A stretch of DNA of 64,000 bases from Candidatus Moraniibacteriota bacterium (GTDB lineage: Bacteria > Patescibacteriota > Minisyncoccia > Moranbacterales > GCA-2747515), in the NCBI GenBank assembly GCA_942490825.1, contig CALNYG010000004.1, positions 52,888-116,887 on the forward strand, written 5' to 3'. Under the pieces are notes generated by a model. It was not told the DNA's origin. It made no database searches and saw only the letters and a list, made by a program, of their open reading frames with translations. Within the stretch, counting starts at the first letter, position 1. Each line of letters opens with the position of its first letter. Below are positions 3,199-16,498 of the stretch, piece after piece. The translations under genes were made by a program, and so were the position numbers.

Positions 3199-3762
3199 CT
3201 ACTCAATTTCATCCACAAAACCAAGCTCTTCAATTCTGCCTGATGCATAAATTACAACTTTATATTTTTTACCCTTTTTTTCTATAATAAATTCTGTTTG
3301 TTCTTCTGCATCTTGATCAATAGGTGTATATGTGGCATGTGGCACAGTAAAAATAATTTCTTTGACACTTACAGACTCCACCCCAACAAATTTAACTGGA
3401 CCCACAAAATCTTCAAAAATATAACCTCCTTCATCTTGACCACACTGTTCATTTATTGATCGTGAAGCATATTTTATATTATAATAAACCCCATCTGCCA
3501 AAGGTTCAACAGAAAATTTAAAAGCACAGGGATAACTACCTTCTTCTTTTTGTTTTCCTGTTAATGCATAGTTTTGAGATTCTCTAAGTGCTCCTGATAA
3601 CTGACGTCCTGCTACTTTTAAAGTATTATTAACACCTCCCTTTGACATACTCACAAGAAGAACCGCAGTCATAATTCCAATAATTGCAATTACTATTAAT
3701 AATTCCACAAGTGTAAATCCTTTTTTGAAATTTTTATTTTTTATATTTTTTTGTTTTATCAT
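3199..3762 (-). CDS. type IV pilin, candidate major subunit
   Basis: FKKGFTLVELLIVIAIIGIMTAVLL. The ATG at 3762 (MIKQKN..) is preferred over the TTG at 3786. First gene of the operon. Confidence 0.75.
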   Translation of the reverse strand: MIKQKNIKNKNFKKGFTLVELLIVIAIIGIMTAVLLVSMSKGGVNNTLKVAGRQLSGALRESQNYALTGKQKEEGSYPCAFKFSVEPLADGVYYNIKYASRSINEQCGQDEGGYIFEDFVGPVKFVGVESVSVKEIIFTVPHATYTPIDQDAEEQTEFIIEKKGKKYKVVIYASGRIEELGFVDEIE

Positions 3763-5941: not shown

Positions 5942-6976
5942 CTAAAACTGTTCTGCAAACCGAACATCACCACTGTGAAACAAACGAATATCATCAATCT
6001 TATATTTCATCATAGCCAATCGCTCCAAACCAAATCCCCAAGCAAATCCTTGATACTTATTTCTTTCATAACCCGCTGCTTCAAAAACATTTTGGTTAGT
6101 CATTCCTGCACCACCAACTTCAATCCAGCCAGTTTGCGAACAAGTACTACATCCATCACCATCACAATTTGTACAAGAAATATCAAATTCAAAACTAGGT
6201 TCTGTAAACGGAAAATAACTCGGTCGCAAACGTACTTCAATTTTTTTTCCAAAAAATTTTTCAAAAAAATTACCTGCTACAGAAAGAAAATTTGCCACAC
6301 TCACATCATCACCAACCACTAAAGCCTCAAACTGGTGAAAAGTATGTTCATGTGAAGCATCAGTCGCCTCACTTCGAAAAACTCTCCCTGGCACAATAAT
6401 TCTAAATGGTGGCTTATGCTCTTGCATATAGCGTATTTCTACAGATGAAGTTTGAGTCCGTAAAACTGTACCAGTCCCCTTCTCGCGACTTTCATCTTTT
6501 GAAATCCAAAAAGTGTCTTGCATATCTCGTCCAGGATGATCATCTGGCATATTAAGTGCATCAAAATTATAAAATTCAGTTTCCACATCTGGACCATCGG
6601 CAATCTCAAATCCCATTGTTGTGAAAATGTCTTCAATATCTCGTTGCACAATTGAAAGTGGATTTAAATGTCCTTGTTTAATTTTTTTTCCCGGAGTAGT
6701 TACATCAATCCATTCTTCTTTTGCATCAAAAGCTTCTTCAATCTCGCCTTTCTTTTTTTCTAAAATTTGCTGAATTTCTTGTTTAGTTTGATTTGCCAAC
6801 GGACCGATTTCTTTTTTTTCTTCTGGTGATAAATCTTTTAATCCTTTTAGAATTTCATTGAAAGCACTTTTTTTGCCGAGATAGTTTACTCGTAAATTTT
6901 CTACTTCTTCTAGGGTTTTTACTTTTTTAAGTCCACCCAACAGTTGGCTTTTGATCTCCTCTATTTTTTTTCGCAT
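5942..6976 (-). CDS. pheS: phenylalanine--tRNA ligase alpha subunit
   Basis: FRIIVPGRVFRSEATDASHEHTFHQFEALVVG, GWIEVGGAGM and GFAWGFGLERLAMMKY class II motifs. Confidence 0.95.
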   Translation of the reverse strand: MRKKIEEIKSQLLGGLKKVKTLEEVENLRVNYLGKKSAFNEILKGLKDLSPEEKKEIGPLANQTKQEIQQILEKKKGEIEEAFDAKEEWIDVTTPGKKIKQGHLNPLSIVQRDIEDIFTTMGFEIADGPDVETEFYNFDALNMPDDHPGRDMQDTFWISKDESREKGTGTVLRTQTSSVEIRYMQEHKPPFRIIVPGRVFRSEATDASHEHTFHQFEALVVGDDVSVANFLSVAGNFFEKFFGKKIEVRLRPSYFPFTEPSFEFDISCTNCDGDGCSTCSQTGWIEVGGAGMTNQNVFEAAGYERNKYQGFAWGFGLERLAMMKYKIDDIRLFHSGDVRFAEQF

Positions 6977-7132
6977 AAACTTATTCTTTTAATGATATTC
7001 TTTAATTCAACTTTTATATCTTGATTATAAAACGGATATCTCAAATATGCAAAATATAAATAAATCAAAAATTCGTAAATTGAAAATTATCTGTTATAAT
7101 TTAATTATAAACACAAAAATGAAAAAACGAAA

Positions 7133-8325: not shown

Positions 8326-8410
8326 TTTTAAAACTCCTAAAAATTTTTTAATTTTTAAAGATTGACGAAAAAAAACTACTGTGTAACAATATAATTATAA
8401 ATACAATTAG

Positions 8411-8572
8411 TCAAGCGACGAAATGGTTTGCACCCATCGAGCTTGCGTGAACAGAGTTAACGATACAAACTCAAAAGAGCGCCCAAATAATTTCGGGAAG
8501 CTAAGTGGAACCGCCCTATTCTAGGGTCTTAGCATTATTTATGAAATTATTTAGGCGTTTTTTTGTTTTTTT
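8411..8572 (+). promoter_or_regulatory. T-box leader (Cys specifier UGC) of cysS
   Basis: Stem I is a K-turn: AAGC 8413-8416 pairs with GCUU 8441-8444, with a GAC bulge and tandem G.A pairs. It ends in a terminal loop UU-UGC-AC, with the codon at 8429-8431. The antiterminator is CUAAG-UGGAACC-GCCCUA-UUC-UAGGGU-CUUAG (8501-8532). A 15-bp helix (8480-8494 with 8543-8557) is followed by T7-G-T7. Confidence 0.85.
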
Positions 8573-8588
8573 GAACAAAATACTAATT

Positions 8589-8727
8589 CATGTCATCCCC
8601 GCGAAGGCGGGGATCCAGGAAAGCAATACTTTAAGTTTTAATACAAACAAAAGTTCATTTGCAAACTTTAAGTTTAATTTTCCTGGATTCCCTTCCACTT
8701 CGCTACGCTACGTACGGGAATGACATG
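8589..8727. repeat. family A nested-hairpin element, copy A1
   Basis: catgtcat-[ccccgcgaaggcgggg]-atccaggaaa ... tttcctggat-[tccc..cgctacgct..ggga]-atgacatg. Confidence 0.85.
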
Positions 8728-8745
8728 TACGAGAAGTAATGAAAA

Positions 8746-8762
8746 GCCCGTGCGGCGAGCAC
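8746..8762 (+). repeat. GC-rich 17-mer (gcccgtgcggcgagcac)
   Basis: Exact 17-mer flanked by aaaa/ttttt, 47 nt before the cysS ATG. Confidence 0.9.
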
Positions 8763-8809
8763 TTTTTATTTTTAAAAGTTTTAAATTGAATAATTAATAT
8801 ATAAAAAAT

Positions 8810-10279
8810 ATGTCAGAATTAAAAATCTACAACACACTCACAAATCAAAAAGAAGGATTCAAATCAATCAATGCTGGAAAAGTTGGAATTTACACTTGTG
8901 GACCAACCGTTTACGATTATATTCATATTGGAAATATTCGTTCTTACACTACTCCAGATGTTTTACGACGATATTTACTTTATTTAGGATACGAAGTTAA
9001 ACATATCAAAAATATCACTGATGTTGGACATTTAACTGAGGACGATCTCGCACAAGGTGACAGTGGCGAAGATAAGTTAGTAAAAAAATCTTTAAAAGAA
9101 AAGAAGTCTCCCGAAGAAATCGCTAGATTTTACGAAAATTATTTTAAAGAGACCGAGGAAGAAATGAATATTTTGCCAGCTAATTATTTTCCCCGTGCAA
9201 CAGCTCACATTCCGCAGATGATAAAAATAATTGAAAATTTAATCGAGAAAGGTTTTGCTTACGAAGCAAACGGAAACGTATTTTTCGATATTGAAAAATT
9301 TCCAGAATATGGAAAACTTTCCGGAAACACTTTAGAAAATTTAAAAGAAAATTCTCGTTTTGACGATCCACATCCTGACAAAAAAAATCAATGGGATTTT
9401 GCGTTATGGTTGAAAGCACCTGAAAATCATTTGATGCAGTGGAAAAGTCCATGGTCAATCGGTTATCCTGGATGGCACATTGAATGTTCAGCAATGAGTA
9501 CAGAATATTTAGGCGAGCAAATTGATTTTCATACTGGCGGTGAAGATAATATTTTTCCTCATCACGAAGCGGAAATTGCTCAGACGGAATGTCACACTGG
9601 ACATAAATGGGTAAATTATTGGATGCACACTCGCTACCTTTTAGTTGACGGCGAAAAAATGTCAAAGTCAAAAGGTAATTTTTATAAATTTGAAGATATT
9701 AAAGAAAATGGTTTTTCTGCAATGGATTTGCGAATGTTGATTTTGTCGTCTCATTATCGTTCTCAAATGAATTTTTCTTGGGAAAGTTTAACGCAAGCTC
9801 AAAAGAATATTAAGACTTTAGAGAACTTTTTTACTCGAATAAATAATTTAGAAAATGAAATAGAAAATAATGAAAGTAAAGTTGACGTGAAAGAATTTCA
9901 GAAAGAATTTGAGGATGCAATGAGTGATGATTTAAACACTCCGCAAGCTTTGAGTATCATTTTTGATTTTGTGAAAAATGTAAATTCTGTTTTAGATAAA
10001 AATGAAAATATTAATTTAAACGAAATAAAATCATTTTTTGAAAAAGTTTTAAATGTTTTAGGAATTAAAATTAAATCTAAAACAACCTACGTTAATTCAA
10101 AACTTACAATCAAAAGATCGATTGGAATTTCACAAGAAGTCTTAAATTTAGCAGAGCAACGCAAACAAGCTCGTGATGAAAAAAATTTTGAAAAATCTGA
10201 TCAGCTCCGTGATGAAATTAAAGATTTAGGTTTTGAAATTAAAGATGTCAAAGATGGCTATGAATTGGTGAAAATTTAA
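8810..10279 (+). CDS. cysS: cysteine--tRNA ligase
   Basis: HIGN (YIHIGNIRSY) and KMSKS class I motifs, plus GWHIECS. Confidence 0.95.
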   Translation: MSELKIYNTLTNQKEGFKSINAGKVGIYTCGPTVYDYIHIGNIRSYTTPDVLRRYLLYLGYEVKHIKNITDVGHLTEDDLAQGDSGEDKLVKKSLKEKKSPEEIARFYENYFKETEEEMNILPANYFPRATAHIPQMIKIIENLIEKGFAYEANGNVFFDIEKFPEYGKLSGNTLENLKENSRFDDPHPDKKNQWDFALWLKAPENHLMQWKSPWSIGYPGWHIECSAMSTEYLGEQIDFHTGGEDNIFPHHEAEIAQTECHTGHKWVNYWMHTRYLLVDGEKMSKSKGNFYKFEDIKENGFSAMDLRMLILSSHYRSQMNFSWESLTQAQKNIKTLENFFTRINNLENEIENNESKVDVKEFQKEFEDAMSDDLNTPQALSIIFDFVKNVNSVLDKNENINLNEIKSFFEKVLNVLGIKIKSKTTYVNSKLTIKRSIGISQEVLNLAEQRKQARDEKNFEKSDQLRDEIKDLGFEIKDVKDGYELVKI

Positions 10280-10290
10280 TTTCAACACAA

Positions 10291-10448
10291 CACAGGGTCG
10301 TGTTTCATAACCCCACCCAAAACATTTCTGAAAAAGTTTTGCGAAAAAATCAAAAATTGCACATGAACTTTACAAAAACATTATGGAACCAGTTATAAAA
10401 CTGGTTCCTGCGTAAATAATTACCAGAACAGGTTTTATAACCCGTTCC
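10291..10448. repeat. family B hairpin element, locus 1 (three hairpins)
   Basis: ggaaccagttataaaactggttcctgcg, gaacaggttttataacccgttcc and a degenerate cacagggtcgtgtttcataaccccaccc. Confidence 0.7.
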
Positions 10449-10533
10449 GTATACTTTTTTTCTACATATTTTTATTTAAAATAATTTTGACAAAAAATAT
10501 AAAAAGTGTAAAATTAAAATGTTGAACAATTTG

Positions 10534-10694
10534 TCAAGCGTTGAAATGGTTTACTACCCATTGAGCTTGCGTGAACAGAGTTAACGAAATAAACTCAAAA
10601 GAGCGCCCAAATAATTTCGGGAAGCTAAGTGGAACCGCCCTATTCTAGGGTCTTAGCATTATTTATGAAATTATTTAGGCGTTTTTTGTTTTTT
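10534..10694 (+). promoter_or_regulatory. T-box leader (Thr specifier ACU) of thrS
   Basis: Same architecture as 8411..8572. AAGC 10536-10539 pairs with GCUU 10565-10568. The loop is UUU-ACU-AC, with the codon at 10553-10555. The antiterminator spans 10625-10656 and the helix 3' strand 10667-10681 is followed by T6-G-T6. Confidence 0.85.
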
Positions 10695-10710
10695 GAACAA
10701 AATACTAATT

Positions 10711-10849
10711 CATGTCATCCCCGCGAAGGCGGGGATCCAGGAAAGTAATACTTTAAGTTTTAATATAAACAAAAGTTCATTTGCAAACTTTAAGTTTAAT
10801 TTTCCTGGATTCCCTTCCACTTCGCTACGCTACGTACGGGAATGACATG
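10711..10849. repeat. family A nested-hairpin element, copy A2
   Basis: Near-identical to A1. Confidence 0.85.
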
Positions 10850-10867
10850 TACGAGAAGTAATGAAAA

Positions 10868-10884
10868 GCCCGTGCGGCGAGCAC
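10868..10884 (+). repeat. GC-rich 17-mer
   Basis: Exact copy, 47 nt before the thrS ATG. Confidence 0.9.
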
Positions 10885-10931
10885 TTTTTTATTTATAATT
10901 TAAAAAGAATAATAATTAATATATAAAAAAT

Positions 10932-12749
10932 ATGTCAGAAAAAAAAGAACAAGAAAAAATTGATAAACAAATGATAAAGCGACATTCAACTGCACACGTA
11001 CTTGCAAATGCAGTTTTAGAAATGTTTCCAGAGGCAAAAATTGCCGTTGGACCAGCAACTGAAGATGGATTTTATCATGATTTTGAGTTACCTCGAAATC
11101 TAATTCCTGAAGATTTAGAAATTCTTGAAGAAAAAATGCGAGAAATTATTAAAGCAAATAATCCTTTTGAAAAATCTTCTATTTCAATTGAAGATGCAAT
11201 TGAGAAATATGAAAAATTAGGTCAAAAATATAAAGTGGAATTAATTAAAGATTTGGCTGAAAATGGTGAAACTGAAGTTTCTATTTATAAATCTGGAAAT
11301 TATGTTGATCTTTGTGCCGGACCACATTTAGATTCAACTGGAGAAATTAATAAACAAGCTTTTAAACTGACTAAATTTTCTGGAGCTTATTGGAAAGGAG
11401 ATGAAAAACGTGAGCAACTTCAAAGAATTTATGGTGTTGTTTTCAATGATAAAAAGCAATTGAAACAATATTTATTTCAACAGGAAGAGGCTAAAAAACG
11501 TGATCATCGGAAACTCGGAAAAGAATTAAAATTGTTTACAATCGATCCGAATGTTGGACTTGGCTTACCACTTTACAAACCAAATGGTGCAATGGTATTT
11601 AATCTTTTGAAAAGATGGTTTGAAGATGAACAATTGAAGCGTGGCTATGTTCCTGTTATTACTCCACATATTGGACGAAAAAGTCTTTGGGAAACTTCTG
11701 GTCACTGGGGATTTTACAATGAATCAATGTATCCTCCGTTAGAATTAGGTCAAACTCTTGAAGATTATCAAGACAGTCGAAAACCAAATGAAAATGAGAC
11801 TTATCTTTTGAAACCGATGAATTGTCCTTTTCATGTTGCTATTTTTAATGATGATCAATTTTCTTACCGAGATTTGCCGATTAAATATTATGAATTTGGA
11901 ACTGTTTATCGATTTGAGCAAAAAGGTGAATTGAGCGGACTTACTCGCGTGCGTGGATTTACTCAAGATGACGCTCATATCGTTTGCACTAAAGATCAAT
12001 TGGAAGAGGAAATGAAAAAGATGATCGATTTCGCTTCCTATGTTTTACGAGATACTTTTGGTTTTGAAATTGAAATTTATGCTTCTTTCCGTGATCCTAA
12101 AAAAGAAAAATATTTAGGAAATGATGAAAAATGGAATGTTGCTGAAAGTACTATTATTAAAATTTTAGAAGATAAAAAAATTGATTATAAAAAAGAGATT
12201 GGTGAAGCTGCTTTCTACGGACCAAAGATGGATTTTAAAGTTAAGGACTCCCTTGGTCGTCAGTGGCAACTTTCAACAATTCAATTTGATTTTAATCTTC
12301 CTGAAAGATTTGATATGACTTTTGTGAATAATGAAGGTGAGAAAGAACAACCTTACATGATTCACCGAGCATTGTTTGGGTCAGTTGATCGTTTCATGGG
12401 AATTATAATTGAACATTTTGCTGGTGCCTTCCCCACTTGGTTAGCTCCAAAGCAAGTTGTGATTGTTCCTGTTTCTGAAAAGTTTAATGATTATGCTGAA
12501 GAAGTTCGCGTAAAACTTTTTGAAAAAAATATTCGTGTGGAAGCTGATACTCGAGATGAGAGCTTAGGTAAAAGAATTCGTGAATCGGAAAAAATGAAAG
12601 TTCCTTATATTTTGGTTGTTGGTGAAAAGGAGATGAATGATAAAACTGTGGCTGTTCGTGCTAGGGATAACAAGGAAAATAAACAGGAAGTTGTTAAGTT
12701 TGATGATTTTGTTATGAATATTTTAGAAGAGATTTTGGAGAGGAAATAG
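10932..12749 (+). CDS. thrS: threonine--tRNA ligase (no N-terminal TGS domain)
   Basis: HSTAHVLANAV editing-domain HxxxH motif, class II core (FRFEQKGELSGLTRVRGFTQDDAH) and a C-terminal anticodon-binding domain. Confidence 0.95.
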   Translation: MSEKKEQEKIDKQMIKRHSTAHVLANAVLEMFPEAKIAVGPATEDGFYHDFELPRNLIPEDLEILEEKMREIIKANNPFEKSSISIEDAIEKYEKLGQKYKVELIKDLAENGETEVSIYKSGNYVDLCAGPHLDSTGEINKQAFKLTKFSGAYWKGDEKREQLQRIYGVVFNDKKQLKQYLFQQEEAKKRDHRKLGKELKLFTIDPNVGLGLPLYKPNGAMVFNLLKRWFEDEQLKRGYVPVITPHIGRKSLWETSGHWGFYNESMYPPLELGQTLEDYQDSRKPNENETYLLKPMNCPFHVAIFNDDQFSYRDLPIKYYEFGTVYRFEQKGELSGLTRVRGFTQDDAHIVCTKDQLEEEMKKMIDFASYVLRDTFGFEIEIYASFRDPKKEKYLGNDEKWNVAESTIIKILEDKKIDYKKEIGEAAFYGPKMDFKVKDSLGRQWQLSTIQFDFNLPERFDMTFVNNEGEKEQPYMIHRALFGSVDRFMGIIIEHFAGAFPTWLAPKQVVIVPVSEKFNDYAEEVRVKLFEKNIRVEADTRDESLGKRIRESEKMKVPYILVVGEKEMNDKTVAVRARDNKENKQEVVKFDDFVMNILEEILERK

Positions 12750-16301: not shown

Positions 16302-16321
16302 AAAAAAATTATATTATATTT

Positions 16322-16456
16322 ATGTTATCCCCGCGTAGGCGGGGATCCAGGAAAATAAAACTTTAAGATTTAACGTAAACAAAAATTAATTACAAAACTT
16401 TTAATTTAATTTTCCTAGATTCCCTTCCCTTACGCTACGCTCCAGCCGGGAATGAC
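16322..16456. repeat. family A nested-hairpin element, copy A3
   Basis: atgttat-[ccccgcgtaggcgggg]-atccaggaaa ... tttcctagat-[tccc..cgctacgct..ggga]-atgac. Confidence 0.8.
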
Positions 16457-16498
16457 AACTGTGATTGATAAATATTATAAAAAAATATTATAACACAC

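Follow-up and report, generated by a model that had tools for sequence, protein, structure and literature searches.

T-box riboswitches with an ultrashort Stem I have been described for ileS in Actinobacteria, where they are Ile-specific and act on translation (Sherwood et al. 2015, as summarised in PMC7583486 and PMC12990946), and a Stem I of this size goes with slow, reversible translational control (PMC7583486). The hallmarks of the T-box discriminator are an RRRxG motif followed by Stem III and AA, a 7-nt bulge holding UGGN and ACC, and a G.U pair at the base of helix A2 (PMC7583486). Here we describe two leaders, one upstream of cysS (cysteine--tRNA ligase) and one upstream of thrS (threonine--tRNA ligase), in a 64-kb stretch of a Candidatus Moraniibacteriota genome (contig CALNYG010000004.1; the whole stretch is hereafter called the window). 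Both are likely to be tRNA-sensing T-box riboswitches that control transcription read-through into the two genes by capture of a purine linker and Stem III. They have the sequence anatomy of a T-box, a specifier codon that matches the downstream gene, conserved and covarying helices, and a conserved long terminator helix with a U-tract. What is new is that the T-box host is a bacterium of the candidate phyla radiation (CPR), that an ultrashort Stem I without Stem II is joined to an intrinsic terminator, and that this terminator draws its 5' strand from the purine linker and the 5' half of Stem III (in divergent relatives also from T-box sequence), not from the 3' strands of the antiterminator helices A1 and A2.

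Like the actinobacterial ileS leaders, the window leaders have a Stem I without the distal double-T-loop platform and keep the linker purines, Stem III, and the core of A1, bulge and A2. Because the platform is missing, the tRNA would be held only by codon-anticodon pairing and by pairing of its NCCA end with the bulge. The actinobacterial leaders act on translation through a sequestrator helix over the Shine-Dalgarno sequence, whereas the Moranbacteria leaders have a hairpin followed by a U-tract. In addition, the actinobacterial leaders keep Stem II and a IIA/B pseudoknot, which both reinforce the codon-anticodon duplex (PMC12647780), in place of which only a small hairpin and a possible pseudoknot are found here, and they are specific for Ile, in contrast to Cys and Thr in these leaders from Patescibacteria. 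The likeness to the ultrashort ileS class that was proposed in an earlier, sequence-only reading of the cysS leader holds for Stem I and fails for the terminator-type output and the absent Stem II. Canonical transcriptional T-boxes (RF00230; Bacillus tyrS and glyQS) share with these leaders the GA motif at the base of Stem I, the specifier followed by a purine, Stem III with its purine flanks, the UGGN-ACC bulge, the G.U pair at the base of A2, and an off state that is an intrinsic terminator 5' of aminoacyl-tRNA synthetase genes. Unlike those T-boxes, the leaders have a 7-nt loop where upper Stem I would be, and they lack Stem II. The canonical terminator also takes its 5' strand from the 3' strands of A1 and A2 (PMC7583486); here the linker and the 5' half of Stem III serve instead, joined in relatives by T-box sequence, so that the A2 hairpin sits in the terminator loop. 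The glyQS type likewise goes from Stem I to Stem III without a Stem II and works by transcriptional control, but it keeps a long Stem I with the distal platform and offsets the missing Stem II by its glycine specifier (PMC7583486), whereas the codons UGC, ACU and ACC are presented here without either. The chances look even that these leaders form a separate class of Patescibacteria T-boxes, relying on a hairpin-loop codon and the NCCA bulge only and tying the sensing of aminoacylation to transcription termination, with the linker-Stem III segment (in relatives together with T-box sequence) as a terminator strand and hence an inverted strand sharing.

The leaders have a T-box core by every discriminator feature tested. 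Of the features of the family they lack three, namely, a distal platform, strand sharing of the canonical kind and a score that reaches the Rfam threshold. The antiterminator of the cysS leader is made up of A1 (GCUAAG, 8500-8505, with CUUAGC, 8528-8533), the bulge UGGAACC (8506-8512) and A2 (GCCCUA, 8513-8518, with UAGGGU, 8522-8527, around the loop UUC), and every element of the string CUAAG-UGGAACC-GCCCUA-UUC-UAGGGU-CUUAG given in the sequence-only reading is in place. In an alignment of nine leaders, from the window and its relatives, the 7-nt bulge UGGAACC lies between a 6-bp A1 (with two compensatory pairs) and A2 in all nine, as do the G.U pair at the base of A2 (G8513.U8527 in the cysS leader), the AA after Stem III and a string of purines before it. 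The RRRxG motif reads GAGCG, GAGUG, GAGAG or AAGAG, the exception being the cysS leader of relative L001 (AGUUG); the 5' part of the discriminator of the divergent relative L013 is GAGAG-CCC...GGG-AA. Stem II is absent from eight of the nine leaders and is deleted in the alignment to RF00230, where the antiterminator, Stem III and the base of Stem I with its GA motif align well. In L013, a further purine-rich hairpin (1843-1872, in the region GAUUUUAGA-GAAAAGAA-AUUAUCUAAG) stands between Stem I and the linker hairpin; it might be an analogue of Stem II or what is left of one. In the cysS leader, the loop ACG (8460-8462) of the linker hairpin P2 could pair with CGU (8446-8448) in a possible IIA/B-like pseudoknot, both sides of which are invariant in the alignment. 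Stem III with its purine linker, the absence of Stem II, the terminator-type output and the enclosure of the antiterminator by the terminator had been omitted from the sequence-only reading.

Stem I of the cysS leader starts with a C-stem, CAAGC (8412-8416) paired with GCUUG (8441-8445); the four base pairs claimed earlier were confirmed, and a fifth, C-G, is available beyond them. It continues with the 3-nt bulge GAC (8417-8419), the tandem G.A/A.G pairs formed by G-A at 8420-8421 opposite G-A at 8439-8440, and an upper helix of AUGG (8423-8426) and CCAU (8434-8437) capped by the loop UUUGCAC (8427-8433). The bulge, tandem pairs, 4-bp helix and loop are thus as first read, and Rfam aligns the GA-motif base. 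The earlier identification of UGC as a Cys codon followed by a purine and placed before cysS also stands, with A8432 next to the codon and the gene assigned by TIGR00435. No AG bay or distal platform is present, as had been noted: the helix above the K-turn is 4 to 5 bp long and capped by a loop of 7 to 9 nt, and 76 model positions of upper Stem I are swapped for 7 nt in the RF00230 alignment. At the sequence level, the GA (K-turn) motif with its 3-nt bulge and tandem G.A/A.G pairs was found in eight of the nine leaders (L012 has A.A at the second pair), and the helices flanking it covary. The second stretch to which the sequence-only reading had pointed (10480-10932) holds a twin leader before thrS, in which the loop UUUACUAC presents ACU. 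Compared with cysS, the bulge GUU replaces GAC and an A.C becomes A-U. When counted from the 3' side of the loop, ACU is in the same register as UGC. This register is fixed (codon, A, one further base, 3' strand of the helix), with A after the specifier in all nine leaders, and only one register fits them all.

Orthologous loci were available from two other Moranbacteria (L001/L005 and L003; L006 is cut by a contig end). UGC precedes cysS and ACU precedes thrS in three genomes, including that of the window. Three divergent leaders (L009, L012 and L013), all located downstream of dnaE, have ACC in the same register, and in L012 the leader lies directly before thrS, whose product is 71% identical to the window threonyl-tRNA synthetase (ThrRS). 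The probability of such a codon-gene match in a fixed register arising by chance is ~1e-4 for three independent events (2/64 x 4/64 x 4/64, our calculation). The two window leaders differ at 5 of 37 Stem I columns versus 3 of 119 columns elsewhere. Stem I clusters by gene, with thrS leaders of different genomes 0 to 1 of 37 columns apart, and the remainder clusters by genome, with 3 of 119 differences within the genome versus 6 to 21 of 119 between orthologues. The expression platform seems to have undergone concerted evolution while selection kept the specifier region distinct, a pattern difficult to account for if specificity did not depend on the loop. A comparison of 8409-8809 with 10532-10931 revealed that the likeness runs on through the downstream spacer and that cysS and thrS have the first codons ATG TCA GAA in common. 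The T-box reading made from the sequence alone is borne out by a thrS paralogue with a Thr codon, by codon-gene pairing that is kept in relatives and by the discriminator hallmarks.

In the nine-leader alignment, 96.7% of cells are paired and 10 pairs change on both sides, a number reached by none of 500 shuffles and compared with at most 2 in slid controls. Compensatory pairs come from both Stem I helices (with such changes in five of nine Stem I pairs), the linker hairpin, A1 and A2. A covariance model built from eight leaders recovered L013, which was not used in building it, with 78.6 bits (E = 5e-16). In the window, the same model matched only the cysS and thrS leaders. The 13-mer AAGTGGAACCGCC likewise has exact matches in the window at the two leader sites only, and GAAATGG-N5-10-CCAT occurs 3 times versus 0.16 expected. 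The minimum free energy (MFE) z-scores of the two leaders are -4.1 and -3.6.

The MFE fold of both window leaders is a single long hairpin with A1, the bulge and A2 intact at its apex. One strand is AAAAGAGCGCC-C-AAAUAAUUUCG, which comprises the purine linker and the 5' half of Stem III, and the other is UGAAAUUAUUU-A-GGCG-U7. The terminator thus shares its strand with the 5' side and not with the 3' strands of A1 and A2. The U-tract of the cysS leader is U7-G-U7. All six Moranbacteria leaders retain the helix (99% paired); seven changes are one-sided and compatible with G-U, and one is a compensation from C-G to U-A. The shuffle control for this helix was not significant because the six leaders vary so little. 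In the eight leaders analysed, the terminator duplexes are -20 to -37 kcal/mol and are followed by U-tracts. The topology recurs with other sequence in L009, L012 and L013 (for example, CCCAUACUUU/AAAGGUAUGGG versus CCCGUAUUUU/AAAAUAUGGG). In L009 and L012 the downstream strand extends over GGGAA, the 5' strand of A1 and UGGA; in L013 it reaches across GGGAA and into the A1 5' strand, part of which it covers. The T-box sequence is thus wholly or partly sequestered in these divergent relatives. In L013, the helix was seen in the MFE fold. The terminator conformer is 12 to 18 kcal/mol more stable than a conformer in which Stem III is enforced. A canonical terminator of ACCGCCCUA and UAGGCG was also considered and rejected, since the 3' strand covaries with the upstream GAGCGCC and not with invariant T-box sequence. 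The hairpin and U-tract lie 45 to 240 nt 5' of the ATG, and the start region is not covered by leader strands. The coordinates of all features are collected in Table 1.

Table 1. Positions of the leader elements, regulated genes and neighbouring features in the window
Feature	Coordinates	Strand	Evidence
Stem I, cysS leader: C-stem, K-turn-like bulge, 4-bp helix, 7-nt terminal specifier loop	8412-8445	+	Sequence; Rfam T-box aligns GA-motif base
Specifier UGC (Cys), followed by A8432	8429-8431	+	UGC also before cysS in L001 and L003
Linker hairpin P2, GAGUU 8454-8458 / AACUC 8468-8472	8446-8472	+	89% paired, 2 compensatory pairs
Purine linker AAAAGAGCG, RRRxG motif = GAGCG; doubles as part of terminator 5' strand	8473-8481	+	Motif definition PMC7583486; pairing from folds
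Stem III CCCAAA-UAAU-UUCGGG and 3' AA; 5' half doubles as terminator 5' strand	8482-8499	+	CCC/GGG invariant in 9/9
Antiterminator: A1 GCUAAG/CUUAGC, bulge UGGAACC, A2 GCCCUA/UAGGGU	8500-8533	+	Sequence, Rfam alignment, nine-leader alignment
Terminator 3' strand UUU-A-UGAAAUUAUUU-A-GGCG (8538-8557) and U-tract (8558-8572)	8534-8572	+	Helix 99% paired, six leaders
Stem I, thrS leader: bulge GUU, 8-nt loop UUUACUAC	10535-10569	+	Sequence
Specifier ACU (Thr), followed by A10556	10553-10555	+	ACU also before thrS in L001 and L003; ACC in L012, L009 and L013
thrS leader: linker hairpin, purine linker, Stem III (10606-10621), AA, antiterminator with UGGAACC (10630-10636)	10570-10657	+	Own covariance model, 156.5 bits
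Terminator 3' strand and U-tract, thrS leader	10658-10694	+	Folds, alignment
cysS (cysteine--tRNA ligase), predicted regulated gene	8810-10279	+	TIGR00435, 481 bits
thrS (threonine--tRNA ligase), predicted regulated gene	10932-12749	+	TIGR00418, 718 bits
Promoter-like region, cysS leader: TTGACG, then AACAAT/TATAAT	8362-8395	+	Weak consensus match, 9/12 with TG
Promoter-like site, thrS leader: TTGACA-16-TAAAAT	10487-10514	+	11/12 consensus match
MITE-like palindromic repeat between terminator and ATG, cysS	8589-8727	+	Repeat comparison; outside riboswitch
Second copy of MITE-like repeat, thrS leader	10711-10849	+	Repeat comparison

tRNA binding, the direction of regulation and capture of the linker and Stem III are what we infer for these leaders. 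During transcription, Stem III would fold first and the antiterminator second. The loop codon would pair with the anticodon of tRNA-Cys (GCA) or tRNA-Thr, and the UGGA of the bulge would pair with the free NCCA end of an uncharged tRNA. The linker purines and Stem III would then dock on the duplex of tRNA and bulge, as in known discriminator structures. Read-through with uncharged tRNA would follow because the docked linker purines and Stem III are withheld from the emerging downstream strand, and the polymerase would pass the U-tract. A charged tRNA would let the linker and Stem III undock, and the downstream strand would capture both to form the terminator. When no tRNA is present, the linker and Stem III would be free, the more stable long hairpin would form, and transcription would stop. 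A single-molecule FRET study of an ileS T-box reported that mimics of charged tRNA undock the GAG linker and Stem III (PMC12647780), which we count as support because the undocked segment is the terminator strand here.

Several points weigh against this reading. A search of the window with RF00230 at the gathering threshold gave no match, and a search of 2.7 kb with Rfam at E <= 10 gave no T-box and only noise, such as FtrB, WsnRNA46 and miRNAs, because of a palindromic repeat in the leaders. With the 181-nt element searched alone, RF00230 was the top match, and the only sensible one, at 22.5 bits (E = 0.0019), far below its gathering score of 93, so the Rfam hit that the sequence-only reading had looked to was obtained for the isolated element and not for the longer sequences. 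The covariation draws on about six lineages and on an alignment fitted to our own structure model. Stem III (CCC/GGG and two A-U pairs) is weak and, being invariant, gains no covariation support. The window-type terminator keeps A1, the bulge and A2; its two states are mutually exclusive only through Stem III and the linker. The leaders of L009 and L013 are followed by a first open reading frame (ORF) that is a short fragment and not recognisable as thrS, after which the contigs stop. In transcriptional T-boxes, fast capture of the tRNA generally requires the long Stem I platform (PMC7583486). The UGGA of the thrS leaders would predict U73 in tRNA-Thr, where this base is not universal in bacteria. 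Bacterial tRNA-Cys carries U73, which fits UGGA. No tRNA genes were found in the window or in the loci examined in relatives.

Three other explanations were weighed against transcriptional control by linker and Stem III capture. The leaders could be genuine T-boxes with another output, in which a different competition decides termination or the hairpin affects RNA stability or translation. Given that A1, the bulge and A2 persist inside the window-type terminator, tRNA could in principle bind both conformers; moreover, the previously described T-boxes with an ultrashort Stem I are all translational (PMC7583486), and in the window the ATG comes 240 nt after the terminator, with further hairpins in between. 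This spacer, however, is a dispersed repeat, which orthologous leaders lack, and in the L001 thrS leader the ATG lies ~45 nt past the U-tract, with no switch strand pairing across it. A GC-closed helix followed directly by U5 to U7 is conserved in eight leaders, and L013 has the same helix with a weak tract of only four U's; the coverage of T-box sequence by the downstream strand in L009, L012 and L013 is a classical, mutually exclusive layout. We consider a different output unlikely.

A decaying or relic T-box without tRNA sensing, either a constitutive attenuator or a leader inherited with its genes, would suit the narrow and patchy spread (none precedes cysS or thrS in L007, L008 and L011), the minimal decoding module without Stem II and the small ORFs without a Pfam or NCBIfam match after the L009 and L013 leaders. 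It is highly improbable, since the specifier, the next purine, the bulge, the G.U pair and AA are invariant or gene specific across lineages while neighbouring positions drift, helix pairing is kept through the 10 compensatory changes, and the remainder of the leader has been homogenised between the window paralogues but the specifier has not. That the leaders are no T-boxes at all, but duplicated repeat or mobile sequence resembling an antiterminator by chance, is the idea that their 97% identity over 400 nt, with a repeat resembling a miniature inverted-repeat transposable element (MITE) included, and the sub-threshold Rfam score would bring to mind. The riboswitch part, however, is found without the repeat in other genomes and always 5' of cysS or thrS or within the dnaE-thrS interval, the only full third copy of the repeat has no T-box beside it, and the codon-gene match has the low chance probability given above. 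Coincidental resemblance is thus scarcely credible. Capture of the linker and Stem III in a T-box with terminator output is the explanation we prefer.

The closest named homologues of the cysteinyl-tRNA synthetase (CysRS) and ThrRS of the window are from Moranbacteria/Moraniibacteriota metagenome-assembled genomes (MAGs); identical-protein look-ups for the window CysRS, GatB and P0001 returned no record. The spread of the leader is narrow, comprising a set with CysRS identities of at least 79% and the dnaE-linked group. By eye and with the covariance model, it is absent from the next relatives, L007 (CysRS 71% identical), L008 (65%) and L011 (ThrRS 70%); the stretch of L010 is too short to judge. 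The exact core pattern was found in a genome-contig collection in one Moraniibacteriota species (the same as L001; GTDB representative), with two leaders, in a metagenome-contig collection in one Joint Genome Institute (JGI) contig, L009, and in no viral contigs. A match in an alphaproteobacterial MAG was rejected as a chance match inside GC-rich sequence. The short ORFs after the leaders of L009 (1569-1685) and L013 (2069-2137) had no match in Pfam or NCBIfam; their N-termini look similar to those of small proteins of the NYN-domain and GxxExxY types, a likeness that these databases did not confirm. In the window, the 155-nt AT-rich region (6977-7132) upstream of pheS (5942-6976, minus strand), which is also an aminoacyl-tRNA synthetase gene, contains no T-box-like element by reading or by the covariance model. 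The T-box regulon in this stretch of the genome appears to be limited to cysS and thrS.

Each of the two genes is preceded by a leader of ~400 nt, and the leaders are ~97% identical over 400 nt. The element itself spans 8412-8572 in the cysS leader and 10535-10694 in its thrS twin, and both promoter-like sites, identified by consensus match, lie just 5' of Stem I. Downstream of the terminator is the MITE-like repeat of ~140 nt, a third full copy of which is found at ~16320-16460 without an adjoining T-box. The repeat is also present in L003 (3428-3565) and is missing from the L001 thrS and L003 cysS leaders. The ~240 nt between terminator and ATG were accordingly rejected as a part of the switch, being a dispersed repeat with a third copy elsewhere and absent from orthologous leaders. 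The repeat has the termini (T/C)ATGTCATCCCCG...CGGGAATGACA and the internal arms GGGGATCCAGGAAA and TTTCCTGGATTCCC, and its Rfam likeness to FtrB and WsnRNA46 is weak and sub-threshold (E of ~0.1). Just 5' of both start codons (8744-8768 and 10866-10890) is a small conserved hairpin, AAAAGCCCGUGCGGCGAGCAC, with U's after it, which is also present in L003 (~1593-1617 and 3582-3606); in a scan it was terminator-like on the opposite strand. After the cysS stop codon, two adjoining hairpins at 10383-10451, GGAACCAGUU...AACUGGUUCC and CAGAACAGGUU...AACCCGUUCCG, were terminator-like on the minus strand in the scan, and a similar hairpin lies 3' of cysS in L001 and L003. This pair is probably the terminator region of cysS.

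In the literature searched, no paper linking T-boxes with CPR or Patescibacteria was found. The leaders described here extend T-box regulation to this group and are of a kind that escapes standard Rfam annotation. As a natural specificity-swap pair, the cysS and thrS leaders differ in little more than a few bases of Stem I, and their inverted platform would be a natural test of the proposal that charged tRNA undocks the linker and Stem III. With ~125 nt from Stem I to A1, they would define the smallest natural tRNA-decoding module, and the rule that transcriptional T-boxes need a long Stem I would be called into question by a T-box of the terminator type in which Stem I is ultrashort and Stem II missing.

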